Shown: piece by piece, positions 36,859-64,000 of the stretch
How positions within the stretch are numbered: the first letter of the stretch is position 1
How the letters are laid out: each line of letters begins with the position of its first letter
Origin: Chrysomallon squamiferum
Lineage: Eukaryota; Animalia; Mollusca
Length of the DNA stretch: 64,000 nt
Assembly: GCA_012295275.1 (NCBI GenBank)
Contig: CM022670.1
Span: 6,696,001 to 6,760,000, forward strand
Reading direction: 5' to 3'
Notes under the pieces: generated by a model
Told to the model about the DNA's origin: nothing
Databases searched by the model: none
What the model saw: only the letters and a program-made list of their open reading frames with translations
Program-made: the position numbers and the translations under genes

Positions 36859-36896
<38 letters not shown>

Positions 36897-38250
36897 AGGT
36901 AAAAATACAAAAAACAACCAAAAACAACCAACCAAAACAAAACAAAACAACAACAACAATCATTAACTGATATTTTGTCTGTTAGTTATAAATATATTTA
37001 AGTTATAAAATAAATAATTTTTACTTTATTACAGTTTCTTATATAAAAATGTTTGTGAGGAATTTATATCATTACCATGTTTTACTGATAATTAAAATTA
37101 ATTTAAGAAAAAGACATTTTGTCGTGTTTAATTATCTAATTTTATTTGTAAGTACAAAAAGTATTATAAGAATGAGTCTTTAAATTTTATTCAGTATGTT
37201 ACATCTTTGGTACTTAATATAACATGTAGGTGTTCATGAAATAAAACTTAATACTGTTTATTATGAACATTAGCCAGTGTTTGTTACATTTAAAAAATGT
37301 TATGTATTACCAGTAATTATTTCTAACATTTAAAATTTACAATTTCAAAATTTAATATGTTTTAAAAACATGAAATGTATTGGGTATTTGAACTGAATAA
37401 TCATGTATTACTTGGATGAATTTCTGGTACATATACAACATTTTCACAACTAAAATAGTATCACTATAAAGAAAAAAAATTCAGATTTTTCAGTACATAA
37501 TGTGATTCATCAGTTAATCTGAAGAAAACTATTTAATATGTTTTTCTTACATCACTTTTTCTTTTAAATCTAAATAACTTTTTGTGATTTAAATAAATAG
37601 ATTTGATTTTATGTCACTCAGAAAGCTTTCATTGTTCATATTTAGTAAATGTTATGACAATATGTAACCTTATTTTTTATTTATTTAGTTTTAAATTGTA
37701 TCAATAACACAAATGAAAGAAAAGTACTGAAAATAACTTTCTGTAACCATATAGCATGCTCATAGTTAATCTCTGGTGTGAGCAATTATTTTTGGAATCA
37801 GGTTACATTTTTTTTAATATACTTTTCGATTGGAGCTATAATCCATATTCCGTAATGTGATAACCATGATATTACTTTTAAGTAAAGCACTGGTAACATT
37901 AACATAGGAAATAGTTTTAGTTTTTACAAGAATTTAATGTGCACATCTGTGTTTGATAAAGTCAGATTTATATGGACTTCACATGAGTAGATTAACATAT
38001 GAGGAAGCACGATGAAATACATATACTGAACATGTTTAATAGGGTGTGTCATTTTGGTGTGTCAGTATTGATCATGTTCTTGAAGTATCTTTGTTTTTTC
38101 ATTTCTTTATGTCATGAATTATATTGCTTGCATTAGTCATTTAATGAGATGAAAAGAAAAAGTGAAATATAAATCAGTAATTGTTACAGTACTGGAGTGG
38201 TATTGAAGGGAACTACAAAATATCAGATAGAATTAAAAAATAAATAATAA

Positions 38251-38284
<34 letters not shown>

Positions 38285-41200: not shown

Positions 41201-44034
41201 ACATATTAGTTATTTTAGAATTGCAGATGTCAAGGACAACAGACAGATGTATGTATCTAAATTCTAGTTTGGTAGAGGAAATATTTTACTGCATATCATG
41301 TTTTATTATTTTTTTCTTTCTTTCTTTATTTCTTTTTTGTTTTCTGAATGTAGATTATACATCAAAATATTTTTATTATTATTATTATTACTTTTATTTA
41401 TTTTATTTATTTTATTTTTTTGCACCATTGATGCACATATCTAATATTGTAGTAGTTTAAATATTTTGACTGGCTGTACTTAGAATGTTAGTTGATATGC
41501 ATGCATACATATGTATTTTAAAAAAAAACACTGCACTATCAGGTATATACACCTGCAAATAAACATAAGAACATACTGACTAACATACATATTGTATTTT
41601 TCTCTGTTTATATCTTCAGTTTTATGTGTTCCCATTCAAGAAAGAGATGATAATGTAAATATTGGGCTACTTGTGGTAAGTGATGCATAAACAGATATGT
41701 TTCACAAAAAGTATCGTATGATATTAGTTGTTTTTTCCATGCCTTGAAAATTTGCTTTTTCATTTCTCATTTTACATAGACTTCCTAAGTTCAGATGATT
41801 GTGATATCCATGGCAGTAAATAGTTTAATAGATATAGGACACATGTTGATTTTTCAAGCTCTTGGTTATATAGCTTACAAAGTCTTAGTAAAGATGTAGC
41901 AGATTTGTAAAAACAAATACATATATTTTTTGTTTTATGAAGCTGTGTTTATCTCTATCACTGATTAAACATCAATAACTTTTTACAAATAAAATGTGAA
42001 AATATAGTGTTTAAGTGAGGATGTTAAAAAAAAAAAATGATACCCTACTGCTACAAAATAAATTGTTTTTGCTGTGAATTAAAATTAAATTATTTGATTA
42101 TATTGACTTTTGTGATTGACTCTTGCTATGGGATAATCAGTATTTTATGTTCATCACTGGTGGTAAAATTTATTAATAAGTAAAAATAAAAATAAGTAGT
42201 TTCTGGTAGAAATAAAAACAGTAGTGTTAGAAAAGGAACCATTTATAATGCCAATATATTCGTCAAATCATTAGCAGATGGTTAGATATTATGATAATTT
42301 TTTCTTTAGTATCAATTATATGATAGCAATGTTATATATGTTAAAAATGTGTTGATGTTTGTTTTAAAGTGCTATAATTAATATTTACTGTCACAGGTTG
42401 CACTTCCACCTGGTGTCACCTGCTGTCCACCATCGGTTGAACCTACTATACATTACTTAACTAAACAGGTTAGTTTACTTCTATTACAGATTATTAGTTA
42501 AGTATTTAATGTTTGCAGGTGTTTTAATGCTTTTAAAATATTTGTATTTGAGCTTTCCAAAAATAACAAACAAAAGAAAACAAGAAATGTCTGCATTTAA
42601 CCATTTTGGTGCCATTGGAGAGTATCTTGACATGCTAGATGATTGCTTTTGATGAGATATCTTGTCATGCCAGATGACTGCTTTTGGAAAGATATCTTGT
42701 CATGATAGAAAATTGCTTTTGATGAGATATCTTGTTATGCTAGATTACTGCTTTTGAAGAGATATCTTGTCATGTTAGGAGATTACTACTGGAGAGATAT
42801 TTTGACATAATGCACCAGCTTCAGTTTAGTCCTAATGTTTCATTTAGATAATTTTCCTAAAAATACCTGGTGCTGTGGAGTATGTGTTTAGGCAGAATTT
42901 GGCATCAAAAAGTTTATTATTTCAAAATAGAGATTCCTTGCTTTTAGAGGGAAAAAATGTAATGTATCTGCCAACTGTTTTACATTGCTGATTAATTACT
43001 CGGTAGAATCATTAAACAAAATGAACACTTGAATTACCTAGACAATTGTGCAAATTTGTTTTTTTTAAATGTGTACTTCCAAAGACATATGATTTATTAT
43101 TGAATGACCTTTAGAGATGTCATTAAGTAAAACAAATAAATGAAAGACATTAAATATTTGTATTCCTGGCCATTAATCTTTGTATTATGTCAATGTCAGA
43201 TGGTGTTTAAATGTAAAAAGTATTATTGATAACAAAATTATGTCATAAAGGTTGTGCTGTTTAAAAACATATTAAATAGAAACAAATAAAAATTAGAGGT
43301 AGTCAGCAGTTGGTTTTGTTATTTTGTTGATAAATGTTATTTACTTACCTATGTCATTATTTATTTGGTTATTAATTTCTTTATTTTTCAAATTATATAT
43401 TTTTATGTTTTGTGTATATTTGAAAGACAGTTTTTCCAAAACCTCATATTAATAGTTTTGCCTGACTACATCTGATCATGTAAAATATTCATCACTGCAA
43501 TTAATAATTATACATTTCTCATGTTTGCAAAACATCATGGTCTCATACAAACATTAGCTGTAGTTCAAAAATCCATAGCTAGGTTACCACTAAAAGTAAA
43601 TAACATATATTGTATTGACCATGGTCAAAATATTTTTTTGTATGGGCATTAACTCTAATTTTTGTTTTTCTGCTTCTTTATCTCAGACATAATCAGTGAA
43701 ATATTTGATTACCTTCAGTTTTGAAAACTGTAAAGCAAACCTTAATTCTAACAGAAGAAATATTTTTTAAAGTTAAAATTGACACATTTTTATCTGTAGT
43801 ATAATAAATATTTTTAATATCTATAAAAATAGCAGTAAGAGCTCATTTATATAATAAGCCAGTTAAAGTGAGTGGAGAGAGGACCTATATTAGCTTACTA
43901 ACACCTCCTGGCTAAGTCACAACCAGTGCTAATCATGAAAAAAAAAAAAATTCTACCCCCAAAACAACAAAACAAACAACCCCCAGAATTATATATATAT
44001 ATATATATAAGCATGTGTGTGTGTGTGTGTGTGT

Positions 44035-44065
<31 letters not shown>

Positions 44066-47000
44066 AAGAAACTTAATTAGATTCTAAAAATACAGCTTTC
44101 AGTTTATATCATGTTATCTTGTTTACTAAATAATGAACCTTAATTAAAACATGGATTACAGAATAATACCTAATTGAATATTTATTAACCTGAACATTGT
44201 TACAATGGAGAATTATCTTGTGATTATTATTTTGTGATTTTTGAGGAAGTTAGAAGATACAATATTTTTCAAACATTAAGCTTCAAGGGTTGATAGAATT
44301 GAAATTTTCATTAATACTTCTACAACTGATAAGAATATTAATGTTCACAATCAATACTCTCTCCTTTGCTACATCCTCTATCGAATTTGAAAAATGGTTG
44401 TTTAATTTACCCTTCGCTATGACTGATTGATCAGTGCCTATATTGATTTTGCTGTAGCGTCTGTGTCTAACAAAATCAATTGGTGATGCAAGTGTCCATA
44501 TTGCATTCAATACTTTTGTTTGCTTCATGTGTCTCATTTATAAATATTTTTTTCTTTTTTTCTTCAATGGTTTAGCCTTCTGGTTATAGAACTGGTTCAT
44601 TTATAGATTTGTTACTGACAGCTGGTGATGATCTAACCATCATGCAGGTGGTTTATGTTTGAGCTTATGAAAACTATTCTTCATAATGCAAAATAAAAAC
44701 AAAACAAAAAAACATGCAGAAGAAAATTGCCTTTTTAACGTGAGAAAGCATAAATGTTTTGTACATATGAGTGTGCATGTGTTTCTGTTTATGTTTGCAT
44801 ATTTAAAAGCTTTATGGATGTATGAGTATGCATGTAAATGTACATACCTATTTATGAATACCTTGGTATGGCATTGTTGTAGTGTTTTATTATTTTCTTT
44901 TAATTTCAAACCAGACTTGTCAGATATCTGAAAACTTAAGTGACTGATATACATTTAATATAGCTGCTGTAATATTTGACTTTTTTTATTATTGTTATTT
45001 TCTTTTAATTTCAGATAATCAACACTGTGTGCTTGTATAAATAAACTATAAAACTGTGTAGTTCAGTTTTCTGCATTTATATTTTTTGGTAAAAACAAAT
45101 AAAACTGATAGATGCTGCTGAACAGAATGGTCACTAGAATTTTATAATTTCTCAGTCTTAGTTTATTAATCAGTATTTAACCATGCTAGTGCTTAACAGT
45201 TCTACATATTATTGTAGCCTTTGTTGATACTTCAAAAATATTGTAAAAATATTCATATGTTTTCTGTTAATTATGTTACAAAGTGGTATAGATTATTGTT
45301 TTCAGATATTCAGGACATGAAACAAAGCACACAGCCTGTTTGCATTCTGTTAACACCTTTTTTTGCTGTTATATGTGATCAATAATAATAATGGATAAAT
45401 AAGTTGACAAACATACACCTGACACACCAGACATTTGTTATAATAAACCTTTTGCTTTAGAGATACCAAATTTATTAACCAGAGATTTACTTATCATATG
45501 TTATTTTTTAACTTTCTCTGGCATTGCTATCATGTATTAATCTGTTCCCTCTGATATTAATGCCGTTTTTTTTTTTTTTTTTTTTTCTTCCATGTAATAT
45601 TGTCTATGGTAATGCTATCATGTATCATTTTAAAAACACTAACCTATGGCATATTGAAGAGATAAGCATACTCTTATTTCAGATTTGATGAGCATAATTA
45701 TCATACATTTAACATTTACTGCCATTTATCCTTGATATATTTGTTCCTACTGTACCATGACTGTTTTGAAATATTAACTGTTTATACAGTAAACAGACAG
45801 AATGGTTCCATTTTTTAAAACAATTTTTAAGTCAATAACCTTTAACATGCCATTGTCCATTTAAATAAAAATGTCATTGCAGTATTATTTTTTTTTTTTA
45901 AATATATGACTTAATTCTTGACCACATGTTTAGATTTAATAACAGATAGGTTGTAATACACTGGTAGTTTTAAACAATCTATTATTCACATACTTATTTT
46001 ACATAAAATAAATCATGAATAGTATATTCTTCAATACAGCATCTGTTTTAACTGTCACTTTAACAGTCAGACTATAAATTATAATGACATTTTTTTAGAC
46101 TTAATTTCAGAAGATAAACCCTATTATAACTTGAATTACTTGTCTGAGTTAATATTTCAAGTCCATTAACAAATTATTTCCAAATGCTTTTGAATTTTAA
46201 TTAATCCCAAAGACACTTGATTTAGCTCAACATTATCTGAATATTGATGATAGTTAATAAATACATAATAATTCTGAGTTTAAAAAAATAATAATAATAA
46301 TTAATTAAAAAAAATAGAAAAAAAAATAGAAAAAAAGTTAAAATAAAAAATAAAATAATAATAATAAACTTAAAATGTTTCCTTAAAAGCTGTCATTATT
46401 TTTACTCCATTCACAGCACCAAACCTGAATCGAAGAACCATTTCTTGTCAGTAAGAAAGTACATTTAGAAAATCCATTGTTATTCATTTTAATGGATTGG
46501 TAGGCTAAGGCCATATTTTCATTAAGGAAAAAGCATTTGCTCAAATGACATCACAATGTTTTTCAAGACACAGGTTTTTAACTAAGATAATGTTTATTTT
46601 TATTTTTATTATTGCAGATTTCTTTATGTTATCAAGTGATTAAAAATACTTACACCAGAAGAAAAAGCATCTGTGTTAGTGACACTCACTTCGAAGCTCT
46701 AATTAAATTATGTGGTGAGTCAGCTAAAAAATAAACAATTTGATTTGTTACTTTAGGAGAACATTTTTAAAAAATTTTAAATTTATTTCATTATTATGTT
46801 AAAAAAAAAAAAAAAAAAAAAAAAATCAAAATTCAAAGTGCATGCATAATAAATAAATAAACAAAATAAATAATTAATTAATCAGTTAATACTGATAACA
46901 ACTTATTAACAGGTTTTTTTTTCTTTTTAGGTGAACTTTATGACCAAGATGCTGACACACTACAGATTAAAGTTATTAAATATGTATGTGTTAAACATTT

Positions 47001-48604
47001 TGTTATATATGAGTTTTTAAATTATGGCAGTTCTGATTGTTTGTTTTGTACTTCATTTTTCCTTGAGCCAAGCTAAAACAAATGAAATTTGGTAGATATC
47101 AGGTAATATAATATTATGTATTAACAAGATAATTTTAAATGAAATTTCGTTTCTGATTTGATAAGCTAGTGAAAAACATATTTTATTATTATTATTATTA
47201 TGGTAATTTAAAAGAATATTTGTCTTATTCCATGTTTTTTATAATATTATTGATGTTTTGATTTATTTAACAAATCAGTGCTTATTTGTTTATAATTCAG
47301 TATTGAACTTTGCAAGAAAAACTAGCATCAATGGAATGAAAATAACATTCATTATTTACAGTACTTTACAATAATATATAAAATCAAACAGCATCTGTGT
47401 CTGTATTTGACTTTTTATATATCTGTTTTGGTTTTAAACAGGCTAATATTTTAAACACACTCACATACATATCAAACTAACAGACACACACAGAATCACA
47501 TACCACATACACTAATACATACATACAGTTACAAATATATATCAAATTAATGGAGACACTCACCTACACATTTTAATACACACACACACTTTTTCACACA
47601 TTTACATAAATTTAATGGATTCACATATTTACATGAGATTTTTTTGGTTACAGTTAGAACAACGAACTCAGGCTCAGAGTGCGTTTTTAGTGTTGGTTGT
47701 ACCAGATTCATCTGAACTCTTTTGTCAGGTTTGCATGCTTATTATTAATTTCTTTATAACAGTGAATATTTTTAATGTGTTACCAGTAACAGTACATCTG
47801 AACTTGCAAACTCTTGCAGTAATTATGTTTTTAAAATAAAAATTAGTTTTTTCTAATGATTAATTTTTCAGTTAGTAGTCAATGATTTTGAAATTTTTAT
47901 CCACTGTACCTTTGGTTTGAAATAATTGGAAGTAAAAGCTAAAATGTCAGAATATCCATTTGTATTATTTGTTTTTTACTGAAATTTATTAACTTTGTTT
48001 TTATTTCATAATTAATTATTTTATTTCAATTTGGAATTTTTTTTTGTTTTTTTACCTGTATTTTTATTTGTGAGAGCTACAGTTTTATCACATGAATTTA
48101 TTTCCATTTGTATAATGAATGTGACATTTTTAATTTATGATTTAAATTTTATCTAATTAATGCTGTAATTTAGGTTGTGGGAAGCAGAATTTTACCACAT
48201 GAAGTCAGATTTCCAGTAAGTTCAATAATTCAGAAAATATATTTTACAAGCAGTATATTTAATTTTTATTTTTAACATTTTCTAAGTTAAAAAGTTAATA
48301 GCAGTAACAAAAATACTGGATTAATCACCCATTCTGTTATACTGAATTAATTATACTGGGTTAATTAACAGTTCTGTTATATTGGATTAATTACACATTT
48401 GGTTATACTGGTATAATTACCCATTCCGTTATACTGCCTTAGTTTTCCATCACCAGTTCTGTTGTACCACCAAATTGATTACTGTTCTATTATCATAGAT
48501 TGATTTTCCATTCAGTTGTCATGGAGACTAGATAACAAGTTTGGGAAATGTTTCATGCTGTTCATTTTGCAAGTGGCTCATTAAGTATAAAAAGTAAAAA
48601 AATA

Positions 48605-48635
<31 letters not shown>

Positions 48636-49387
48636 ACTGGTTTGCTTTATTACATGCATTTTCACAGATTAAATAGTACTGAATGTATTTTCAATTTTAA
48701 AAAAGGCTGATGAAAAAAGTTCCGTTTTACAGACCCTTTGTCAATGTAATAATAAAACAAAAATTAAAATTACATTTAGACACATTTTACTATTAAGTAT
48801 GTAAATATCAACATCTACATTTTTAAGATATTCAGTGTTTTTATTTATTAAAAATAAGAAAAGAAAAGGATTTTAAAACCATAAGAACAGAAATGGACAG
48901 CCTGCATAAAAATAGTTTGTTCTTTTAAAAATTTCTTTTAATTTTTGAATTAACATATATTTGACTTTACTGTGTTCGCTGTTCGGGATATTTTTTTTAA
49001 AACAGATGTTTACCTACTTAACCTGTGTCATGTGTAAGCATTTACATACATAAGTCATTCATTTTTTTTAATTATTATTATGTTTTTTTAAAGCATATAT
49101 ATATAAACCCTAAATATTAATTAACATCATTTGAAATAATTCAATAATATAGTCATTGATTTGTAAAATGAACTTGGATTTAAAAATATGAAACATGATT
49201 CAGTTTTACAGTTGTTTTTGAATATAGATCAATTATTTAAATAGTATTAAAATTTATTTTATTGTTTTGTCAGATCTGTCAAAAATAGATATGGTGGTGT
49301 TAAAAATAGATATGATGGTGTGTGCAATGTATTTGTATATAATATGACTAGGTTTTCTATTGCTTTGTTTTTGAATTATTCAGTACT

Positions 49388-49436
<49 letters not shown>

Positions 49437-50555
49437 TAGATATAAAAATTAGAAGAAAAAGAAATAGTACTAGTTTTTCAAATAAACAAAAACAGTACAA
49501 CAGAAAAAAAGAAAAATAACAACAAAAACAAAACAAACACAAACAACAGTGAAATAACATTTTTGGAGCACAGACAGCACAGAAGAGGATTTGCCACAAA
49601 AATTATTTTACTGCAATACTCTTTAAACATAAATCCTTTCTGTTACAATCTGATTAATTATTTAGTTTACAGGATGTCAGCATTTATTATTTTTATTCAT
49701 TTTCATTAGAAACATTTATGGGGAATTTAAATTTACAAGGTAAGATAAGGTTATATAAAAATTTTAAAAGAAAAATGATATTATGATTTGGACATGACAG
49801 ATAGTTGGTGATACTGTAAACTTAGTCATTAAGATTTAAAAATGATTTTATTAAGAAACTGTTAATATTCAGTTTAAGTTGTTCTTTGATTTTAAAATGG
49901 TATTTCTTTTATTTCAGGGACAACAGAGTCCATTTTCAAAAGCCATGGAAACAAAGGAACCTATTGGCTGGGATGAAATTTCACAGGTTTGAACAAGATT
50001 TGTATTTTTATTTATTTATTTACTTATTTTATTTTTAATTTTTAATTTTTTTTTTTAATATTTTTTTTTTGGTAAACTTAGTTACATCATTTAAGTAATG
50101 TATTAAAATAGATTATAAATAGATTATTCATTAATTTGATTTTAAATGATGCCTTTTTAGTGTTATGTTTATTTATTTATTTATTATTATTATTATTATT
50201 ATTGTTTGTTGTTTTTTGGTGGGGTTTTTTTTATACTGTGACAGTAGTGAAAAATTGAGTTTTTGTATTTTTATTTATTTGCCAAAGAATTTTTCTTTTT
50301 CTTATTATTTTCTCCTTTTTTATCATTAGGACATGTGCATGTTATTGGAGAAAATTAAAAAATGTTCTTTCTTACTTAATTTAATCATACATAAAGAGCT
50401 GTATCCATAACTCTAATTTAGTATCAGCAAAATGTATTTGATAAAATTTTCATGAATGTTTTATGCAAAATTTCAGCTGAGGCAATAAAAATGGTAAAAT
50501 GATAAAAATAAAAAAGAGAATATTCTAAAATAAACCCAATGACATATTTAAAAAA

Positions 50556-50589
<34 letters not shown>

Positions 50590-53500
50590 TAAAATGACAA
50601 TGAAAAATTAAAAATACTTAAACAAAAATAATAAAATCACAACCTCTTTCCTATATACTGTAGATTATTTGTTTGTGTTTGTTGTTATTTAAGGATCAAC
50701 AGGCAATGGTGGAAGAGTTGGCAGGAATGAAAATCCGATCTCTGTTGTGTGTTCCTGTGAGGAGGAAAGGCAGTGAAAACCTTGTTGCTCTTGCTTGTGT
50801 GATAAACAAAAAAGGAACAATAGGGTTTGTATGATCTACACCTACAGGGCTTTAGTTTTCAACAACCTTTCTCTTGACATCTCTGTCACTTGTTGCATCG
50901 AGTCTATGTTGACGTATTAAAAATAATATTGCCTACTAATTTGATCTTGCTTAGCCTTCTCAAAAAAGTTTGAAAGTCCTGACAGCTTCATTTTACTCCA
51001 CTAATCGTTCTTTTTTACCCATTTTTTTAACTTGATCCTGAAACCATGCAGTAATATAAACATTTGTTTTTGTATATCTAAATTATCTGTACATTAAAAA
51101 AACATAAGTAGAAAGATAACTAAATATCTAAATTTCTCACATGGCCTGTTTGATTTTTGTTGCCTTAGATTATATTAGATAATTTAAGAAAAATCAGTTA
51201 GTTGCTTTGCAAGAGATCAGTTGTAATTAGAATTAAAATTGAAAGTAAAAGACACATTTTTCATTCAAATTTAGAATATTAATTGATTTGTTTTGATGCA
51301 CATATATTTTATTGATATAATATTTTTTACTTTTGACTTGTTTTATAATTGGTGAAAAATAATGTACAGAGAACGTTGATTCATGATAAGTCAGAAATTG
51401 ACACTATTCACTGTATTTTTCTACTTAATGCAATACTTACTAACTATATTGTTTGGTAACAAAACTTGTCTGTTCTGTTTTTGTTGAAAACAGAAACAAA
51501 TATTGGGAAAACAAATCACTTGACATTAGCCAGTATTTGAATTTTCTATAGTTGCACTCAAACCATGCTCCTTGTGACTTTAATTTGTGAAAAATATTGT
51601 AAGTGGTTTGACATCACTATATTAGGTAAATAACTGCTAGTCATTTCGCTTTACATCACTTTAATATGAATGAATTAACTTTTAGTTTCACAAGTGAAGA
51701 CATTCATGGAATTCGCCAGTGTTTTCAGTATACTGCTACTGTCTTGACAAGCACCTTGGCATTTCAGAATGAAAGAAAACTGAAGGATCAGACACAGGTG
51801 ACTTATATTTTTTATTATGCTTTTAAATATTATTTCATTTGTTTGTTTCTAATGCTGTACTGAACCTTTTCAATAACAAAAATGAAAAAAATAATAATAT
51901 AGAAAATGATTTATCACAGAATTTATTTATTAAATATTTTCTCATCATATCCTCAAAAATCTATTAAAAAAAGAAGAAAATAATGGGATCCCACTGTTAG
52001 AAAAGGTAAATTAAATGACAAAAATAAATAAATTAGTAGATAAAAAAAGAAGAAATTAAAAAATATAAAATTAATTAATAAAATAAGACCCATGCACACA
52101 AAAATCTCAAAGAAATGAAAAAAGATTAAAAGAAACAAATAAGTGGTATTAAAAACTCTCAGATAGTATTTTTTCATTTGAGAATTCTAATTATTATAAT
52201 TGTTTCCTTAATATTTTTGTAACAATTATTTCAGGCCCTGCTGCATGTGGCTAAAAAGCTGTTCACTCGATTAGGTAAGATTCCCTTTCTCTATGATAAG
52301 CGTACAGATGATGGTATATTCTCCCGGTATTTTCATAAACCAGTTGGTCTGAATGAACTTCATTTAGTAGAAAGTTATAATGATGTGCATGATGCCGAAG
52401 ATTTTGAGTTTGTAAGCAGGGATAATCAAAGAATTGTCATTAGCACATTAATGCCAGAGTTGATGGAAAGCATAGAGAAACAGTTGGAGTACCAAGAAAA
52501 GGTTGCAGATAGTCTTCTGGATACCTGTATTCAAAAGACACAAAAACGAAAATATAGAATTCATCCCAAACTGAAATCTTCAAATAGCAAGCGACCTAAA
52601 GATTTGGAGAGTTTTTCTGTTGATAAAGATAGTAATGCATCACCATACAAGAGGAAAACCAGGACAGTATTTGCTATGGAATCAGGACATGGTGATTGCT
52701 CTGTAGGTACAGACACAGATCCAGTATTATCAAGCAGTGGGGAAGATGTTAGTCAGAAATGGTTCAGCCCGTATGATTCAAGTAACTGTCAGCCACTTAG
52801 TCCAGTTTCCAAATCTAATTCTGAATGTGACTTGCCTCATTCCGAGTTGGAAACAATGTATTACGATGTGTGGTCAAAAATGACTTTCAAACCATCTTGG
52901 AAACTTTCTGTGTCAGACTCTTGTCTTCTCAGAAAATCTGTTAGTGTTAGAGAAAGTATTGGGGACAAAATAACATTGGGTACATGTGTGTTACGAATAT
53001 CAAAGAGTGAACCAGTACTGAAATACATCAGTAATCATTTCTCAAGTCCTTGGAACAGCAAGAGCTGTCTAAACCTGGCTTTCTTTGAACCTGAAATTTG
53101 TGACAGTCTGTCCTCTGACAGTGACAGTACAGAGTCTGTGCACACACCACAGAACACAGATCACAAGACTGCTGTAATTGTGGTAGAAGATGTAGACTCT
53201 AGTAGCAAACACACTGTAACAACTAAACCCTCTCCTTCTGTTAGCAGTGTTTGTATAGATGACATACTCACTGAAGAAGACCAAATCACATGGACACCTA
53301 ACACTTGTCTTATAAAATCTATGCAGCCACCAAAGGCAGACGGCATTCTTTTTGAGCTAAGTAGGTTGTTGAAACAGTTTAGAGATACTGGACTGTTCAA
53401 GTTCTTGTTCTTCTTAACCCTTTAGTTTTGATGGACCAATATTTCTGCTGTACAGCTAGAGCCAAAAAATCACAATCTAAACAGTTAATCCATCTATGTA

Positions 53501-56500
53501 AGTAAAACTGTTTGCTGTTGACTGGTTATGAGCCAGTAAGATTCCCAGAGACATCAGCACCAAAAAGTGCAGTAGTTTAGCTTTTCTTGTTCATTTCTAC
53601 ACTTTTTGGCTATATCAGCATAATATGGTCAGTGCTAAAAGGGTTAATCTGTTATTAAACAATGCTGTTATCTCTAACACATTTTATTTGAATGTTGGTT
53701 TTTTGTATTCTTTCTTTTCTTTTTTCTTTTTTTGGTTGATTATTTTTACCTAAATGTTTCTAAAAATGTTCTGCAATGTAAAGCCATTTGCATTTGAAAA
53801 AACATCAATAGGGTCATTCTGTGTCAAATCACCCAGTGGGTTAAACCCGACCATCTCAGATACTACTGGGCCAATCTTCATAAAATTGGTATTGTTGAAA
53901 AGGCAATATGACACGGATTCCATATCTGCCATTATTGTTCAGTTTGGAGAATATTGGGGTACACTGACCTTTTGATCTTTGTAATGACCTTGAAATTGAC
54001 CTGGTGGATCACATTACCTCGAGATGACACTGAATGACCCAGTACCTTTATTTTTAAAGTTGTTTTTTTTCAAATCTTTTAATTATAAATATTAAATCTG
54101 GATATAACACAAAGTTTTAAAAATTATCATTTATATGCATAATACAGAACTATTAATAAAAGTACCTTAACATTAATAAAACTTGTATTTTATATAATAA
54201 ATAGTGTCATTAATGAAATTATTATTAAACATATAGAATATGATAACCATTATGTATTTAAAAATACATTTTTACTTCAAGAATGTTTTGTCTAAAATGT
54301 ACTTTATTCATGTGTTTTATGTTTTGTTTATTTAATTATTTATTTCAATGTTTATTGTTTTAAAATTTTCAGATTAGACATCTGACTTATGTAGGGGCTT
54401 AAAGTTAAAACAAATATTAAAATGTTGATAATATAATAAAATAATAATAAAAATGTTAATAATTATTTAGAATAATAATAATAATAATAAATATGAGATG
54501 CTTTATTAAAATAAATTATTTTTTGCTGAATCATTAATTTCAATTAAAAAATGAAAATGAACAGGAACATCATAACTGAGACAGTGTAAATTATCTGAAT
54601 ATTCATTAGTTCACTTGCATAGAAATGTTAATTAAGGGCCTGTATAAATTAATATTATAATTACTTATTTCTAAACACAAGTATTTATGTCTTCTTAATT
54701 ACAGATGATCTCACAAAATTATTGCGAGAAATTATGCAAGAAGCAAGAAACTTGACAAATGCTGAGAGGTGAATAAATAATTTTATATCAATGTCTGGAT
54801 ACTGATTTAAAGTGCAGTTCATAAAACCATCCAGTTGCTAATAATAAAGTGTGAAGGTATTACAGTTAGTCAGTATCTTCAAGAACTGAAGGCAAAAACA
54901 AATATAATGGTCTGGCACTTTTTTTACCTTTCACTCTGAACTCATGTATAATCATATTGTTAGATAAGAAGTGTTCACTTGAAAACACTCAGAATCTCTT
55001 TAGACATTTAGTTACATGACCACATATACATAAAAAGTTTAGAAATTACTGCAATCAAAGTTTTAAATGAGTTGCTTTTTTTTTCTCTCACAACAGAGTT
55101 GACAGTAATTTATTAGTATAAATCTGATTGTTGACATAACTGTAAATGTTTTCTTTGTTTGTTGTTTTTTTTTTATCAAAATCTTACAGGGTGAAATAAA
55201 GTTTTATTTTCTCTCTACAGATGTTCTGTATTCCTTATTGATGATGAAACTGATGAGTTGGTTTCCAAGGTTTTTGATGGAATCAGTGCCAATGACAGTG
55301 AGGTATAATTATATTTAATCTTGGAAAATTAATCTATGTTACATACCTGTCCTCTCTGAAAGACCACTGGTTTTTATCGATATAGCTGTAGTATTTAAAT
55401 TGTAGTTAATATTTTACTGCTCAAATACAGGTATTCAAATATATTTTCAAATTCATACATACAGGAGATATGTGAAATAGTTACAATAATTGATATTTAA
55501 GTTGACAATTAGAAAACATTTATAATGAACAGAACAGCATGAAGAACTGAAACCTATATATGCATAAACAGCAAACAAACAAAAAAAGATCAAAATAACC
55601 ATAATTTATAAAAAATATTGTAGTAACAGATGTTTATTATTTTTCTGAACCTTGAACCAGACATTCCAATTAATGAAAACCTCTCTTTGCCTTTGTTTGA
55701 GGTTCAGCAGGAAATCCGAATGCCAAAGATGCAGGGAATAGCAGGTCATGTGGCAACCACAGGTAAAATCTTAAATACAAATTTAGTCATTTATTGAAAA
55801 TTTTGATAATACAATTTTAAAATATTTATTTATTTATTTTGATTTATATGAATGATTTTAATGTAAATATTTAGATCTAATAGAAATTATTATTTACAGA
55901 TTGGTGCATCATCTATTGTATGCACTGTTGGCATTTTCACATTAACCAAAATCTTGGATTTCAGATGATTTATAAAATGTATAATCACTGAAAGCGGATA
56001 TTTAAATGGAAGAAAGGTTTTTGTTGTAAGATTAATTTTTTAAAAACACCTCGCAGCAAATATTGACAGAAAGAGATGTAACAGGGACTGATGTGAAAAA
56101 TATAAAGTACAGGTTGGCATCACAAGACACTGTTAGTTATGACAACCTTGCCTTTAACAGACTTTCTTATGTTTATATGAAATTGTATAAGGTATTAATG
56201 ATTATCTAATGTTTTACACACATATACTCCTCACACACACACACACACATTGCTTTTTGTTATAATACATTATTTTGTTGTAATAAATGTTATATTATTA
56301 TAATTTATTTTTTTGTGGTATTTTATTATAATTACTACGTTTTCTGTAATTACTCTAACTTTTCAGACTGATAATAAACATTTTCTTTTCTTTTAAATTA
56401 AAATCTAATCATATATTTTGTTTGATATAAAATATGATTTACTTGATATTTTAGGAAATCTTCTGAACATCACTGATGCCTACTCTCATCCTTTGTTCTA

Positions 56501-59500
56501 CAGAGGAATAGACGACACTACAGGATTCCGAACAAGGTATCAGCTGTTACACAACCTTATTTTTAGTGTTATTTTCATTATTACTGTGCAGAACAAAAAA
56601 AATAATAATATTAAAAAAAAAAAATAGTTTACAAAAGGAAAAAGAACAAAAGTTAGGTAAATATTCATAATTAATAATAAAAGAAATATTTAAACTAAAA
56701 ATAATAAGAATAACTGCTTTATTAAATTTTATTATTATCTCAATGTTTTTTTTTCTTAATTGTTTTTTAAAAGTATAATTATAATATTACAAATGACCTG
56801 ATTTCTGTTTACAAGACTAACATTAAAAATGACAGCTTGATATTTGCTAGCTTTTATAAGGTACATAATTATCATTTGTTTATTTTTTGCAGAAACATTT
56901 TAACATTTCCAATCAAGAATGAAGAAGGTATGTACACACGATCTATTTGTTTATACAAGAGAGTAGTCTGTGTATTAACAGAATCTGATTTTCTTTTGTA
57001 TCAAAATAATAAAAAAAAAAAAAAAAAGCTAAAACAACCCAAAATTTTCATATTAAAATGTTATTAAAAAAAAATAAAAACATTCTTTTATATATATAAT
57101 TAGTTTTTGTTTTTATTAAAATGTTTTTGCAGGTGTAGTGTTGGGTGTGGCCCAGTTGTGTAACAAAAAGACTGGACCATATTTCACAGTTTTTGATGAA
57201 GACATTGCTTCAGCCTTTGCAGTTTATTGCTGTATAAGTATTAGCCATGTAAGCCTGGTTTTCTTTATATTGATCTGTAAATGTACTTGAGACTGATATC
57301 TAAATAGCCCTAGTGTTATAATTTAAAACTGATTGTTCGTATTGTTTTACCTGGTAAATGCTGACACTTGGAATAGGTAAGTATTGTAGTAACATGAAAG
57401 CCTAACAAGATTATTTGTTGTATTTTTACTTGTTAAATGATGGTTGTTGGAACTAGTAAGTGTTGTTGTGATATTAAAATCATAAATTATTTTTGATTAG
57501 CATTAAATATCTTTAAAAATTATTATTCATTAAATACATTACAATGGATCAGATAAGTTGTATGTTGACATGTTTTTTTATTTTTGTTTTCCTTTTATAT
57601 GGATAGTTTTGATTTTATTACAAAACATATACAATAGTTATTGAGAATGAATGTTCTTTTATTTTAGGTTTTTAGGATCTAACCACTTGTGCATGCACAT
57701 TCACACACTCACAAACACATAAATAATTTAATAAGTGAAAACATTTTCTTAGTTTTATTAAATAAAGATGTCTTTTGGTAATCTATACAGTTAAATGTTT
57801 TTATTCTTTTGTAAATGTAAGTATATTAAAAAAAATAAAATAAAAAAATAATAATAATATCCAGTCATTTATTAAAATAATATTTTAAAAAGGAAATTAT
57901 GATTTAACTAAATAATATTAACTAATGTTAAATGAATAGAAGAGGTGAGATACCAAGCATTATACAATTTGATATTCAAACAAGTAAATAAATAAAGTGT
58001 GTTTTAATTGATGTATAGTTTGCAGATCTCAAGTGTGTAGTGTATAAGTTTCTGATTTCACAACACCAATGTGAATTTTATAAAGCTTGTTTGACATTTC
58101 AGTCCCTGATGTACAAGAAGGTTTTAGATGCACAGTACAGAAACCATCTTGCAAATGAATTGATGATGTATCACATGAAGGTACCATAGCAACGCCGTAG
58201 TCCCTTGTTGTTGTGTGACACACCACAGCGCTCTTGTAGGCAGTGTAGCACGGCTCAGAATGTGTAGTTTGTCTGCTGTCTCTATGTTCTGTTTTTTTCC
58301 TTTCAACTGTTTTGTATTTTCAGTGTCTCATGTACAAGAAACTTCAGGACTCACAGCACCGTAGTAAACTTTCTAATGAACTTATGATTTATCACATGCA
58401 GGTTAGTTAGACATTTTTGCTCCTGCTTTCAGTGCTGGTTTATTTTTATTTTATTTTATGTTTTTTTTTTTTTTTTTGCATGGGTGCACTAACTTTCAAG
58501 TTTCAAAATGTTTAATGTTTCTTTTTTTTTTTAACTGGCCATGGCTTTACCCTCTAACCATGGTGGTTGTTTTTGTTCTCTGACTAGAGAATGTTTATGG
58601 TCAGTTTTATGTACCACTATGTAAAGTTCCTGTTGGTTTTAATTCAATATACTGAGAAAATTAGTTTGTTTTATCAGTACCACTAGATCACACTGATTAA
58701 TTCTCTCATGTTGGCTGTTGCATTACCGAATTATGGTGTCAGATAGGCTTCAGTGGAAACTGGTTTTTTCATTAGCTCAAAAGAACTATTTATTTGCTTT
58801 TTCCCACAAACAGGAAATCCTTGGGCATAATAGACTTAGATTACTGACTGATCCATAACAAAGATAAAAAAAATAAAAAATTAAAAAATTAAAAAACAAA
58901 CATAATAAAAATGTTTCAAAATTTATAAAAAGTTAAATGCTATGTGATTTGGGACATCTCTTATATAATAACAAAAATAAATAAATAAAAATAAAATTAA
59001 ATAAAAAATTCAACATGTTAATAATTAAGCTATTTTTAACTTACAGATGTAGAATATAACATAGTGGTACAAAATGAAGTTTAAATATCAGTGTTCTTGC
59101 TCCTTTGTTTCTCTGATAACCTGAGGGAATCTTTAATAAAACTTGCTATGTGGTTTTAACATATATAACATCCAATGCTCAGTGTTTTTAACAGTTGTAA
59201 GTCACGCGTTAAGTGGATTTTTACACATCAGCAAGAAAGCAGAAGTGTGAGTAGTTAATAAAAATACTCAAATTATCACATTACTAATGTTTTGTTTACT
59301 AATACTTTCTATAAGGGTAATTAACATAGACTTAATTTGTCATGAAAATTACAGCTTTCTTATTACAATTAACATAAATGTATTTCTTCTAAACATTAAC
59401 AGTTAATATTAATTTAATATCTAAAGGATATCGTGACATTATTAATAAAATTAACGTTAATTTATGAGGTTAATAGTGGCATTATGGTGAAGTGACATTC

Positions 59501-62500
59501 TTAGTGTAGTTAACATAAATGAAATTTATCAGGTTCGTTGGTGCTGATAGCATTTTTAGCATTATAACAAAGATAACATACATTTTATTTTTCCAGAATA
59601 TACTTAATATTTAATAACCAATAAAAAAACACTTAAAATATTATATAAAATATGTAAACAGGTTGTGTGAAAGTGTATAACAAATTAAAAAAATGAACAA
59701 TTTGCCTTTAACAAGTAATAATTTTCTGATGACTAAGGATTAAATAACATATATAAATTTGGAATAAATCTACATGATAATCAAAGTGACTTCTTTTTCT
59801 AGTATCCTTGTGATAATTTGTTTTGAGTTTATGATTAATGTGATGAGTTACAATGGGAATGGTGTAAATTATTTTACAGAACAGTCACATGATGTTAGTA
59901 AGGTAAGACAAATATACGTAGGCTAATCTAGAAATATCAGCACATTTATTTATAATCAAATACAGCAATCAAAATTTCTCAACATTCATATTGCTTTACT
60001 AAATGGGGGGAAAAAGTAAAAGATCCACCTTCATGATAAAATCTCACATAGTTATTATTAACTGCCTGATACTGTATCAGAATGACCGTGCTCTCTCAAA
60101 GGCTTTGGTGTGAAGTTTCTGAGAATTAAGTGAGAAAGATGATTTATTGATCTGAAATTCACACTTCTTCATAAATACCTGATAACACTAATTGGAAAAA
60201 AGAAACTTGACACTGGAAAGTTTATCTGTGTATAGGTCAGTGAGGTGATGTACAATGTGTATAAAATAACTGAAATGTCAGCAGCTGTAAGGTTTCTGAT
60301 CAGTTTGGTTATATAAATTTTGTATACTCATAAAAGTGGAATGGTTGTCTATGCAGGCTATTTGTTTTGATAAGAACAAGGAATCTTATATATGCACTTC
60401 TATAAGCAGGATAGCACATACTGTTGCCTTTATTAGATTTATCATTGAATAGGAAATTATCCAAAGGTTGCATTTAGGAGGGTTGATCTTGCCATCAATC
60501 ATGATTCATCTGAGCTGTCAAGCTATGAATTATAAAATAATTTAGAGATTGACATGCTTTTTGACACCATAGAAGTGTTCAGAATAAAGAAGGTAAGACT
60601 GAATCAATATTTTTCAGGTTGTAGAGCCAATAGGATATTTAGATCTCTGTTTTAAAAGTAGAACTTTACTAACTAATGAGCACTGACATTTAACAAAGCT
60701 ATTGGTATTGGTGCTGCATGTTCTTTGTTTCTGTGTCGCACATTAATAACAAGTTTCTCTTTCTGATTTCAGCAAACTTGACATCTTTGAAGTACATACA
60801 ATCATTCATTTCTATGTTATTTAATTTATGATTAAAGTTTTCACAACTGATCATTTTTGTAGACATAGAAAAAGTGGTGTAAGTAAGTTTTAATTATATT
60901 TTTCTACACTGAATTTTTTAATTGTTAAAAGTATTCAATGAGGAGTGAACTAAGAGGTAAATAAAATAAAATTCATATTGCTATATTTCAGTTTATCCTG
61001 ATAAATAATGTCTTTGAAGATGAAGATGGTAACTTGGGTATAGACTCTTCTGCATTTGTTTTTGACTGATGATGAAAACATGTTGTTGTATGTACTGTGT
61101 GTCACAGTATAATATATAGTCATATTTAAGTTATGTTTTACATGAATTGGTCAAGGGGTAATGTGAATGTTTTATCTTCTAGGTCTCACCATATGAAGTG
61201 GAGATGTACTGCAAACAAGACATCCCCTCAGTTTATAGTTTAAGTCCAGACTTTGACAAATTCTATTATGCTCCAAGAACACTTCCTGAAAGTGACACTT
61301 TAATGGTAATAGTGTAATACTAAAATACTGCAGCAGAACTTTCAAGTTAAAGCATTATATCTGAAATTTGTGTTTTTATTTCTTTTCATTTTAAATGAAA
61401 TGTATTCAGTTATTTAGAAAATTATTAAAAATAAAGCTAATTACATTATCAATTAATAGTTTATGGTTTAAGTATTGTAACTACAAAACTAATTTTATTT
61501 TGATGTTAGGCATGCATGGCTATGTTTGAAGAGCTGGGATTCATCTCCAGATACAGAATCAGGAAGGATACTCTTACAAGGTATTATTAATATATTTTTA
61601 AAAACTTTGCTTGTAGATTTATATTAATTTGGCAAATAATTTTATGTTTCTATTCTAAAGATTTTAATGTCATTCAAAAAAAAAAAATTAAAAAAAAAGG
61701 AAAAGAAAAGAAAGATTCTAATACATTTATGTTAGTGTGGACAATATCATTTTAATGTTCCTATTTAAAAAAAATAATAATGTTATTAATAACAATTATC
61801 CACAGTTTTACGGACTGAAAATCATTACATCATTGTTTTAAATCAAATAAATATAAAATGGGTACTAGACAATAAAAAAGCTTTTTATAGATCAGGATAA
61901 ATAATTATTATAATAATTATAATACTGGGACAAGATAAATATTGTTTATTAAAAGATTATTCTGAACTGACTTTGCTATTAGTTTTGTGTTGCATACTGT
62001 GCTGTAATTTGTGACTTGCTGTTTACTGACAGGTTCTGTCTGATGGTGAAGAAGGGATACAGAAACCCACCCTATCACAACTGGATGCATGCTTATGCAG
62101 TAACACACTTTTGCTACCTCCTTATTAAGAACATCAAACTAGAAAGATATTTGGAGTAATTACTTTGACATTTTCTTTGATTTTTCTTTTAAACTTGTTG
62201 ATATATGTTGATTATGTATTGTAGTCATACTGTTAGGTACATCTGTGTACCCTGTTAAAAGTTTTGTTCAGTGAACTGTGTTTTAAATCCTTTTTTTAAA
62301 ACAAATAAATACATGCAATAATATGGATAATCTAATAATTTTTGTGCATAACAGTTACACTCAATTTAATAGATACATATACATACAAACATACACCAAA
62401 ACACACACATATAATATTTTTTTTTTTTTTACTGTTATTTAAAGAAATCCATTTGAGGCATTATTTCATCACTGCTTGGTTTACACATCTTGTGATTTAT

Positions 62501-62691
62501 TTTTTCAGACCCATTGAAATGTTTGCATTGTTTGTGTCATGTCTGTGTCATGACATTGATCACAGAGGTACAACCAATTCGTTCCAGGTTCAGTCTGTAA
62601 GTTCACTAAACATTTGTTTTTCACTCTCTGATACCTGTACACTTTGTTCACTAGCAGTTAATATTTGAATCTGAAAACTGAAGTTGTATGC

Positions 62692-62737
<46 letters not shown>

Positions 62738-63286
62738 TGAGATAAAGTAAAATATGGTTTAAAATCATTTCTTCAAATATCCTTTCTTCACTATCTGAGT
62801 TCTGTACAGTTTCTTCTCTTGCTAAGGGTTGTTTATAAAATGTAATGTAATTAATGTTTTGAGGATATTTGATTTTGAAGGAGATAAAGTTTTATTTGAC
62901 CATTTGTTGTTATCTGTCTGAGTAGTGGTATTTCTAATAATGCATTTAATTATACATTTTTGAAATGAAAAACATTTTTAAAGATTATTAAGAAAAATGT
63001 TTTATTTTCAGCAATCTGTTTTGGCTGCTCTCTACAGTTCAGAAGGGTCAGTCATGGAGGTAAAATATGTTTAATGTTTATCATTACAGTTCATGTTTAA
63101 TCCTACTACATTTATGTGATAGTTTATGTAATACATACTACATATTACCAGTTACACAAATTACATAATCTGTTATCAGTTTACACCAGAACAGTTGTTA
63201 AAATACAAACAAAATTGAAGAATACAAATATTTCCTGTTACTGGTCTTACTTACCTTAAATATTAATAAAAACAAATTAAAAATCA

Positions 63287-63340
<54 letters not shown>

Positions 63341-64000
63341 AATTTTCTTTATTTGACTAATGCAATTTAAAAATGGATATTTTTTTAACATGGTTATTGG
63401 TGTTTATTTTCAGAGACATCACTTTGCTCAGAGTATGTGTATTGTAAACACAGAAGGATGTAATATATTTGAGAATCTCTCCAGCAAGGTAAGTTTTCTA
63501 AACTTTTGTTACTGATGTGTGTATATTTGTCTTGTTTATTTCTGAAATCACTTTTTAACTACCGTGTGTTATCCTTTATCTGACCATGTCTTGTAATCAT
63601 AGTTGCCCATAATAACTAATATTTTTATAGGACTATCAAAATGTCTTGGACTTGGTAAGAGACATCATTCTTGCAACTGATCTTGCTCATCATCTCAGAA
63701 TTCTCAGACAGCTACAAGAAATGGCAGACAGTGAGTGAAATTCATGTTTTATAAATCTGGAACAAATATTCAGTTAGGATCTGTTGTTGTACGATCAGTT
63801 AACAACTTGTTAATTGACAGAAATTATAACTGGACTGTAATATAAATTATATGGTAAAACTGAAATTTCTTTCTTTCTTTTCTTTTCTTTTCTTTCAGTT
63901 TTGCTTTGTTTGCTTATTTGTTTATTAATAACAATTTATTTTTGACAGTTTATTTACTATATTAATAATATTATTTTTCAGCTGGTTATGTTCTATATTT
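36404..64000 (+). CDS. PDE2A: Multi-exon gene: cGMP-dependent 3',5'-cyclic phosphodiesterase (PDE2 family), 3' end outside window
   Basis: About 28 GT-AG exons join in frame. The translation has PDE2-typical [66 protein letters not shown], the GAF NK..FDE motif, and catalytic [27 protein letters not shown] and ILATDLAHH. Confidence 0.96.
39471..39560 (+). CDS. PDE2A: PDE2 exon ([30 protein letters not shown])
   Basis: ttttcag acceptor, CAG|GTAAGT donor, phase 0-0. Confidence 0.85.
40331..40419 (+). CDS. PDE2A: PDE2 exon ([30 protein letters not shown])
   Basis: tttag acceptor, GTAATG donor, phase 0-2 fits neighbours. Confidence 0.8.
40875..40981 (+). CDS. PDE2A: PDE2 exon ([35 protein letters not shown])
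   Basis: aatag acceptor, G|GTATGC donor, phase 2-1, open frame. Confidence 0.75.
41620..41675 (+). CDS. PDE2A: PDE2 exon ([19 protein letters not shown])
   Basis: cttcag acceptor, GTAAGT donor, phase 1-0; GAF-like LCVPI motif. Confidence 0.85.
42397..42468 (+). CDS. PDE2A: PDE2 exon ([24 protein letters not shown])
   Basis: cacag acceptor, CAG|GTTAGT donor, phase 0-0. Confidence 0.8.
42601..42912. mobile_element. Degenerate piggyBac-like MITE containing a ~33-bp tandem array
   Basis: ttaa|ccattttggtgcca ... tggcatcaaaaag|ttta; about 5 internal copies of gagatatcttgtcatgctagatgactgctttt. Confidence 0.45.
46618..46714 (+). CDS. PDE2A: PDE2 exon ([32 protein letters not shown])
   Basis: ttgcag acceptor, G|GTGAGT donor, phase 0-1; leads into the PDE2 LCGELYD motif. 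Confidence 0.88.
46931..46983 (+). CDS. PDE2A: PDE2 exon, GAF-A start ([18 protein letters not shown])
   Basis: Matches recalled PDE2A GELYDLDASSLQLKVLQY; canonical splice sites, phase 1-0. Confidence 0.93.
47654..47728 (+). CDS. PDE2A: PDE2 exon, GAF-A ([25 protein letters not shown])
   Basis: ttacag acceptor, CAG|GTTTGC donor, phase 0-0. Confidence 0.9.
48174..48215 (+). CDS. PDE2A: PDE2 exon, GAF-A ([14 protein letters not shown])
   Basis: tttag acceptor, GTAAGT donor; resembles recalled PDE2A VIGDKVLGEEVSFP. Confidence 0.9.
48315..48440. repeat. Degenerate ~28-bp tandem repeat
   Basis: tactggattaat.acccattctgtta units. Confidence 0.6.
49918..49986 (+). CDS. PDE2A: PDE2 exon, GAF-A ([23 protein letters not shown])
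   Basis: tttcag acceptor, CAG|GTTTGA donor, phase 0-0. Confidence 0.87.
50694..50824 (+). CDS. PDE2A: PDE2 exon, GAF-A ([43 protein letters not shown])
   Basis: GAF motifs SLLCVPV and ALACVINK; taag acceptor, phase 0-2. Confidence 0.92.
51686..51797 (+). CDS. PDE2A: PDE2 exon, GAF-A end/linker ([37 protein letters not shown])
   Basis: Close to recalled PDE2[23 protein letters not shown]; phase 2-0. Confidence 0.95.
52235..52274 (+). CDS. PDE2A: PDE2 exon, GAF-A/GAF-B linker ([13 protein letters not shown]), short canonical form
   Basis: tttcag acceptor, TAG|GTAAGA donor, phase 0-1; matches recalled ALLQVAKNLFTHL. Confidence 0.93.
52275..53425 (+). CDS. In-frame Ser/Asp-rich extension of the linker exon (alternative donor at 53360|53361, or read-through to stop at 53425)
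   Basis: The longest ORF in the window (392 aa in the track), contiguous and in frame with a PDE2 exon. It has coding-like composition and no microsatellites, and contains a phase-1 donor CTAA|GTAGGT. Confidence 0.7.
53418..53643. mobile_element. piggyBac-like MITE
   Basis: TTAA|CCCTTTAG ... CTAAAAGGG|TTAA: TTAA TSDs and CCC/GGG termini. Confidence 0.7.
53811..54040. mobile_element. MITE with 16-bp TIRs, superfamily uncertain
   Basis: gggtcattctgtgtca ... tgacactgaatgaccc (15/16 inverted match); TSD unclear (aata/agta). Confidence 0.75.
54705..54768 (+). CDS. PDE2A: PDE2 exon, GAF-B ([22 protein letters not shown])
   Basis: ttacag acceptor, GAG|GTGAAT donor, phase 1-2. Confidence 0.95.
55221..55302 (+). 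CDS. PDE2A: PDE2 exon, GAF-B ([27 protein letters not shown])
   Basis: CSVFL and KVFDG cGMP-pocket motifs; phase 2-0. Confidence 0.95.
55708..55762 (+). CDS. PDE2A: PDE2 exon, GAF-B ([18 protein letters not shown]); start ambiguous (55702/55708/55711)
   Basis: [11 protein letters not shown] motif; three in-frame AG acceptors; CAG|GTAAAA donor. Confidence 0.92.
56455..56536 (+). CDS. PDE2A: PDE2 exon, GAF-B ([28 protein letters not shown])
   Basis: PDE2 signature AY.HPLFYRG.DD.TGFRTR; phase 1-2. Confidence 0.96.
56893..56927 (+). CDS. PDE2A: PDE2 exon, GAF-B ([11 protein letters not shown])
   Basis: ttgcag acceptor, AAG|GTATGT donor, phase 2-1. Confidence 0.93.
57133..57248 (+). CDS. PDE2A: PDE2 exon, GAF-B end ([39 protein letters not shown])
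   Basis: Intact NK..FDE GAF motif; phase 1-0. Confidence 0.95.
58103..58180 (+). CDS. PDE2A: PDE2 linker-helix exon, copy A ([26 protein letters not shown])
   Basis: tttcag acceptor, AAG|GTACCA donor, 78 nt, phase 0-0; close to recalled human [26 protein letters not shown]. Confidence 0.92.
58324..58401 (+). CDS. PDE2A: PDE2 linker-helix exon, copy B ([26 protein letters not shown])
   Basis: Long pyrimidine tract then ttttcag acceptor, CAG|GTTAGT donor, 78 nt, phase 0-0; 16/26 aa identical to copy A. Confidence 0.9.
61183..61305 (+). CDS. PDE2A: PDE2 exon ([41 protein letters not shown])
   Basis: ttctag acceptor, GTAATA donor, phase 0-0; PDE2-like F.Y.PR.LPE.DT. Confidence 0.93.
61510..61580 (+). 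CDS. PDE2A: PDE2 exon, catalytic domain ([24 protein letters not shown])
   Basis: Canonical splice sites, phase 0-2. Confidence 0.93.
62033..62155 (+). CDS. PDE2A: PDE2 exon, catalytic domain ([41 protein letters not shown])
   Basis: YHNxxH metal-binding motif; phase 2-2. Confidence 0.97.
62509..62596 (+). CDS. PDE2A: PDE2 exon, catalytic domain ([29 protein letters not shown])
   Basis: Class I PDE signature HDxxHxGxxN; phase 2-0. Confidence 0.97.
63012..63059 (+). CDS. PDE2A: PDE2 exon ([16 protein letters not shown])
   Basis: PDE2-typical [15 protein letters not shown]; phase 0-0. Confidence 0.96.
63414..63488 (+). CDS. PDE2A: PDE2 exon ([25 protein letters not shown])
   Basis: ERHH motif spans the junction; AAG|GTAAGT donor. 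Confidence 0.96.
63631..63730 (+). CDS. PDE2A: PDE2 exon ([33 protein letters not shown])
   Basis: ILATDL motif; GTGAGT donor, phase 0-1. Confidence 0.96.
63982..64000 (+). CDS. PDE2A: Probable start of next PDE2 exon, truncated by window edge
   Basis: ttttcag acceptor; a phase-1 join gives ...MADTGY, like recalled human MAEVGY. Only 19 nt are visible. Confidence 0.5.

Follow-up and report, generated by a model that had tools for sequence, protein, structure and literature searches.

Adjacent, probably mutually exclusive exons for the LH2 linker helix in a molluscan PDE2 gene

The PDE2 gene of Chrysomallon squamiferum carries two adjacent exons, A and B, that encode different versions of one linker helix, LH2, and splicing inserts each of them singly between one shared pair of neighbouring exons. 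The pair is real, expressed and ancient: an ordinary splicing mechanism acts at an unusual, mechanistically telling site, and the functional effect is predicted. We hold with moderate confidence that the two exons are likely mutually exclusive and that the swap would tune how cGMP, acting through GAF-B, opens the catalytic sites. PDE2 links signalling by cGMP (nitric oxide) to the degradation of cAMP. Two natural versions of the PDE2 transducer helix, which differ at a few positions mainly of one face and have been kept apart since early molluscs, name residues to mutate for the activation relay.

A tandem exon pair and its splicing

In the window, by which we mean the whole 64-kb stretch of DNA that was analysed, tblastn with the Gigantopelta proteins P0007 and P0008 tiled plus-strand exons from 36404 to 63726 (Table 1). 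A preliminary description had assigned the gene to PDE2, and this identity is borne out by the upstream exon, which matches GAF-B chains of PDE2A best, by the nearest named relatives, which are gastropod PDE2s with Gigantopelta aegis first, and by the best PDB matches, which are PDE2A (E value of 8e-271 for the B form against full-length PDE2A). A tandem GAF pair, GAF-A and GAF-B, precedes a class I catalytic domain, and the whole is closest to PDE2A. A KVFDG stretch at 55221-55303 aligns identically with PDE2A chains; judged by motif, the gene appears to have the Phe-Asp pair F438/D439 of GAF-B (presumably mouse numbering). This pair binds cGMP according to the available text of PMC7590001.

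Table 1. Features of the PDE2 locus, in window coordinates
Feature	Position	Strand	Evidence or remark
PDE2 gene (N-terminal region, GAF-A, GAF-B, catalytic domain)	36404..64000	+	tblastn with Gigantopelta P0007/P0008; continues past window end
Constitutive upstream exon, end of GAF-B	57133..57248	+	donor joined to A or B
Exon A, LH2 variant A (human PDE2A 551-576)	58103..58180	+	78 nt, AG/GT ends, translation
A-B intron	58181..58323	+	143 nt, GC-rich first 90 nt, in-frame stop at +7
Exon B, LH2 variant B	58324..58401	+	78 nt, AG/GT ends, translation
Constitutive downstream exon, start of catalytic region	61183..61305	+	tblastn; RNA loose ends behind A and B

Exons A and B are equal in length and phase (0-0), with intact splice sites. 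Their positions, spacer and peptides were confirmed exactly as first described, and so were the flanking borders at 57248 and 61183. In pairwise comparison the copies share 16 of 26 residues, as had been reported, and 55 of 78 nt. Eleven codons are identical, 5 differ synonymously and 10 nonsynonymously (uncorrected pS of 0.79 and pN of 0.20); what had been called many synonymous differences amounts to five codons among the 16 conserved residues. Translated in all six frames, the window offers no other match to A better than 8/26, so the likeness of A and B is not due to chance. Gigantopelta isoform X2 matches exon A at 26/26 residues and isoform X4 matches exon B at 25/26, while the next exon is only 76% identical. 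Between window A and the bivalve-type A exons of two loci, L031 and L018, synonymous sites are saturated (pS of 1.06 and 0.95; pN of 0.11 and 0.14, respectively). Comparison at the DNA level for A and at the protein level for B points to purifying selection on both copies; the idea of an old duplication under such selection thus gains from the pS and pN values and from the peptide tree described below.

Five sequencing runs contain the region, four of which are RNA, all from one study. Contigs were used over 56400-58700; they show presence, neither absence nor level, and cover intronic sequence as well. The joint from the upstream exon to B (57248>58324) was present in three of the four RNA runs (X1, X2, and X3), and the joint to A (57248>58103) was present in one (X2). 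Onward joints to 61183, deduced from loose-end letters matching the start of that exon, were found behind A in two runs (X2 and X4) and behind B in three (X1, X2, and X3). No A-to-B joint (58180>58324) was seen in the contigs of the four runs of this one study; unspliced contigs passed through the A-B intron in runs X1, X2, and X4. These joints, together with the isoforms found within single species, support the either-or use of A and B that had been proposed. Mutual exclusivity is likely; for its strict form the evidence is the absence of the A-to-B joint in these contigs, and nine database models that join the two exons speak against it.

In run X4, A was spliced onward while the upstream intron was unspliced (57249-57554 and 57944-58182), with no upstream joint seen; order of splicing and intron retention are two readings on offer. 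Contig depths (B above A in runs X1 to X3; onward splicing of A only in run X4) cannot rank expression and were not taken as a sign of tissue control.

Distribution and history of the pair

Proteins with A alone and proteins with B alone are both found among gastropods, bivalves, and cephalopods, and both isoforms are already in automated RefSeq annotation. Among 101 presumed-mollusc proteins, 69 had one copy, 11 had two, and 21 had none; the last comprised 19 short intron-reading frames, a truncated protein, and a Tegillarca model that skips both exons. A-only and B-only forms were found within one species in Gigantopelta, Magallana gigas, Crassostrea angulata, C. virginica, Ostrea edulis, and Dreissena, and among cephalopods Octopus gave A and Acanthosepion gave B. 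The order was A then B in every model with both. A model of the chiton Liolophura has A, then 46 residues, then B, and 9 of the 101 proteins, all automated models, join A and B directly (Babylonia, Pomacea [RefSeq X6], Ylistrum, Nucella, Batillaria, Pinctada, Candidula, Physella [RefSeq X2], and Ruditapes). Thirteen long or multi-exon Logan-only proteins, likely derived from RNA because exon borders are crossed, include nine with A only, three with B only, none with both, and one with neither. Loss of a copy in relatives had been named as a sign of a pseudo-exon; both copies are kept in gastropods, bivalves, cephalopods, and the chiton.

Some clams carry a second A-like exon, giving a three-exon cluster whose third copy is missing from the preliminary description. 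In Mya, P0161 chains two A-like copies and P0099 has B, so this clam has three. Loci L031 (oriented 1681-1758) and L018 (oriented 448-525) each carry, as an exon of its own, one of the two A types of Mya, and B is missing from the 836 nt and 1629 nt downstream, respectively.

A tree was built from 60 distinct peptides (26 columns; vertebrates excluded), in which singles were classed by similarity and tandem copies by position. With support that is rough at this length, one branch (99/97) set the A copies apart from the remaining peptides, and another (90/78, not starred) did so for the B copies. Clustering followed the exon, whatever the species, a pattern consistent with a single duplication that predates the divergence of chitons from the other molluscs; we regard such an early event, with co-inclusion rare, as very probable. 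The chiton split is Cambrian. In land and freshwater pulmonate snails (P0047, P0080, and P0090), exon B is strongly diverged at its end, and two of these three have lost the conserved Glu19, which makes them a natural test of the role of that residue.

The pair is likely confined to molluscs. Of 136 other proteins, 134 had one copy, one had none, and one had an identical doubled block, a count that is weak because 90% clusters can hide a second isoform. Each of 73 metagenome loci, which fall in few sequence types, held at most one copy; 15 covered both flanking exons and had a single exon behind an AG, a fish-like locus (L038) had a single LH2 exon with both flanking exons spanned, and several arthropod-like loci lacked the upstream intron. 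A profile search of 1.84 billion representatives gave no diverged tandem pair among the 150 matches listed of 193 (142 new ones examined). Vertebrate PDE2 proteins retrieved have one LH2 segment, in agreement with the single segment first described for mammalian PDE2A. Across relatives, both peptides recur in molluscs, and the non-molluscan genomic loci have one exon. In Parasteatoda, P0107 and P0338 contain doubled segments whose copies are identical and sit inside longer repeats, and these were discounted as artefacts of the gene model or the assembly. The Lingula P0096 and Parasteatoda P0107 models repeat a GAF-B block exactly, probably through assembly, and placement of loci in taxa by best match failed because the duplicated Lingula model inflates scores.

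Copy A had been described as the one closer to mammalian PDE2A. This is correct as far as it goes (21/26 for A versus 14/26 for B), but 20 outgroups (annelids, brachiopod, nemertean, flatworm, arthropods, hemichordate, amphioxus, hagfish, and others) are equally near the two window copies, with means of 18.35 of 26 for A and 18.55 for B. They agree with A at positions 7, 10, and 22 and with B at positions 8 (polar), 12 (His in 11/20), 15 (Lys/Arg in 19/20), and 26 (Gln in 11/20). With residues of both copies present in the outgroups, A cannot be taken simply as the ancestral form, and its likeness to jawed-vertebrate PDE2A is probably partly convergent; the aromatic residue at 12 and the nonbasic residue at 15 likely arose in parallel in the two groups.

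The linker helix and the predicted effect of the swap

The exon aligns to human PDE2A residues 551 to 576. In the available text of PMC7590001, GAF-B spans 393-541, with the catalytic domain at 579-941, which places the exon in the interdomain linker. An AlphaFold2 monomer of P0007 (42 sequences) has one helix at 528-572, with the exon at 548-573; its top Foldseek match is 3IBJ (56% identity), and pLDDT drops from 86 to 55 along the exon, with values of 55 to 73 over most of it. The exon is predicted to form the C-terminal half of the long GAF-B alpha5/LH2 helix, both ending together. The alignment and the predicted model are thus in accord with the linker-helix assignment made at the outset.

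Divergence between A and B was mapped onto a helix at 100 degrees per residue with a permutation test. Among 17 A and 21 B peptides, which are phylogenetically nonindependent and include singles classed by similarity, divergence peaked at positions 8, 7, 22, 26, 12, 15, and 1 and clustered in the direction of 325 degrees (R = 0.46; permutation P = 0.015). For the window pair by itself the clustering was not significant (P = 0.14); conservation pointed away from the divergent face without reaching significance (P = 0.26), and strong differences at two positions, 7 and 10, lie off that face. The hydrophobic moment, at about 170 degrees, points elsewhere. Exon A is hydrophobic at 8 (mean hydropathy of 3.9 versus -1.8 in B) and mostly so at 12 (0.6 versus -3.0); exon B is polar at 8, with His12 and Lys/Arg15. 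The copies share a core of L2, Y4, Q11, R13, L16, N18, E19, and L20, of which E19 sits on the variable face and is near-invariant (17/17 A and 19/21 B).

We propose that cGMP binding in GAF-B would open the catalytic sites via LH2 and that exchanging A for B would tune this coupling. Differences at face positions 1, 8, 12, 15, 22, and 26 around a retained core would shift the balance of closed and open dimers and, with it, basal activity and fold-stimulation. We judge it rather probable, from the analogous LH2/H-loop contact of PDE5 and PDE6, that copies alike in core and different mainly on one face would act in this way. LH2 meets the H-loop of the partner in open-state PDE6 and in a PDE6C/5 chimera (PMC6392808, PMC13199883). 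In the chimera, as described in the available text of PMC13199883, the partner H-loop packs on LH2 residues V446 and E449 and holds the open state. The i, i+3 spacing of V446 and E449 is also that of L16 and E19 in the mollusc exon, a likeness of spacing between unaligned residues. For PDE2, the solved near-full-length state in the accounts available is closed, and the open state is deduced from PDE6. The contact is shown for PDE5 and PDE6 only, and the accessible text of that work mentions no splice variation of it (PMC13199883, PMC6392808).

The main rival to this tuning of catalysis accepts an exclusive pair but has the variable face serve partner binding, dimer choice (A/A, B/B, or A/B), folding, or localisation instead of catalytic gain. 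The variable positions do share a face that points away from the hydrophobic moment, as on an exposed binding surface; LH2 helices cross the dimer axis of PDE6 as a major interface of about 685 square angstroms in the available text of PMC6392808, and LH2 has been proposed as a chaperone-bound segment (PMC13199883, available text). Yet the near-invariant E19 sits on the same face, LH2 is documented in fixing the H-loop of related enzymes (PMC13199883, available text), and no partner was found in this analysis, so we consider this reading unlikely.

Cassette-like use of the exons, in which A+B is a real third isoform of at least some snails and bivalves, its linker 26 residues longer and its activation uncoupled or reset, would account for the nine in-frame A+B models and for the Mya model that joins two A-like copies, and both exons do preserve frame. 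However, A+B appeared in none of the four RNA runs and in none of the 12 exon-bearing Logan-only proteins, and gene predictors commonly chain in-frame duplicated exons. We find this possibility quite improbable, and several of the chained database models are probably wrong. Practically no weight remains for the notion that either copy is a pseudo-exon in decay or a product of misassembly. Its support was the weak-looking donor of A and an A 5' joint in just one of four RNA runs; it is refuted by the near-complete Gigantopelta matches beside a less conserved next exon, by the splicing of both copies in RNA contigs, and by the peptide tree, with saturated synonymous sites against bivalve-type A exons and a single RNA contig through A, the intron, and the start of B arguing the same way.

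In an extended version of the favoured tuning proposal, which we consider doubtful, molluscs would set the gain of cGMP-to-cAMP crosstalk by splicing. The A and B enzymes would differ clearly in basal activity or cGMP dependence, with A/B heterodimers between them; A would have converged on the jawed-vertebrate face (aromatic 12, nonbasic 15), clams would have a third option, and a 362-residue insert after LH1 would be a second switch on the other linker. If so, the pair would be a natural, half-billion-year-tested mutant set for LH2 opening of a GAF-PDE.

A human catalogue holds 236 tandem exon duplication events with mutually exclusive homologous exons, such as OGDH 4a/4b, SCN8A, and ACOX1 (PMC8373072, available text). 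Like those, A and B are equal in length, of the same phase, old, under purifying selection, and probably used one at a time; unlike them, the mollusc pair swaps an interdomain allosteric helix and appears mollusc-confined. The available part of the catalogue table gave 0 matches for "PDE," while the controls ACOX1, OGDH, and SCN8A were found. Mammalian PDE2A (3IBJ, 9LRN) and mollusc PDE2 share GAF-A, GAF-B, LH2, and the catalytic domain. In the available text of PMC7590001, the splice forms PDE2A1 to PDE2A3 differ in the N-terminal domain, whereas the mollusc variation is at LH2. Searches of openly accessible full text on PDE2 and on mollusc exon choice turned up no publication on the pair. 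Research on cyclic-nucleotide signalling in Aplysia, Lymnaea, octopus, and oyster must reckon with two or more PDE2 enzymes.

How exclusivity may be kept, and other features of the gene

Joining A to B would add 26 residues, which would likely break the register of the linker and favour exclusivity. Nonsense-mediated decay (NMD) had been said to be unable to enforce it; this holds for spliced A+B, and a retained A-B intron, which has an in-frame stop at +7, would likely be cleared by NMD. The first 90 nt of that intron are 51% G+C, against 20 to 37% at 10 other donors of the gene, which suggests constraint, and the intron likely carries cis-elements for exon choice. As a tentative possibility, A+B joining would be blocked jointly by a cis-element in the 5' half of the short intron, which is GC-rich, and by the donor of A, whose sequence (AAG/GTACCA) looks nonconsensus; a branch point at +38 is one candidate within the proposal. 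A short intron is not universal, given the distances without B in L018 and L031.

The exclusivity of OGDH 4a/4b depends on distant branch points, located less than about 50 nt from the upstream donor (PMC7969005, available text). The A-B intron resembles that system in being short and in having a branch-like motif, the only one in the intron, at +38 and a U-rich tract with a 54-nt AG-free zone before exon B. In contrast to the long AG-free zones of OGDH, seven AGs, several of them YAG, lie between the +38 motif and the B acceptor; the 54-nt zone is within the range of the gene (15 to 191 nt), and the intron at L018 and L031 is not short. A branch-like motif within about 50 nt occurs at 6 of 10 other donors, and that at +38 is no rarer than chance. 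Steric exclusion by a distant branch point finds no support beyond chance. Folding of the A-B region gave no RNA fold that beats shuffles (z of +1.0 to +2.3), pairing of the A donor with the B acceptor in the minimum-energy fold was rejected as unsupported, and the 25 longest inverted repeats are A/T-rich low-complexity sequence. When translated, the window intron bears a likeness (L10, L11, D13, and P15) to the residues behind A in a Haliotis rubra model of low quality, a hint only.

Both linkers of mollusc PDE2 seem to be alternatively spliced. A putative alternative donor on the plus strand (window 52235-53360) would lengthen the LH1-ending exon by 1086 nt: the short form ends after 52274 and the long form after 53360. 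Use of the latter is predicted to place 362 residues, free of stops and rich in Ser and Asp, between LH1 and GAF-B. At this site, inserts of 121 to 707 residues occur in Gigantopelta (47% identical), Haliotis, scallops, oysters, mussels, Dreissena, Ruditapes, and the chiton, share a partly conserved Q-P-P end, and are absent from the non-mollusc proteins checked. Window positions 1-33000 are mainly simple repeats (CA, GA, and CT runs), with no long coding frame except repeat-derived ones. Upstream of a small EIRMPK exon, a stop-free stretch at 55651-55776 could conceal an alternative acceptor.
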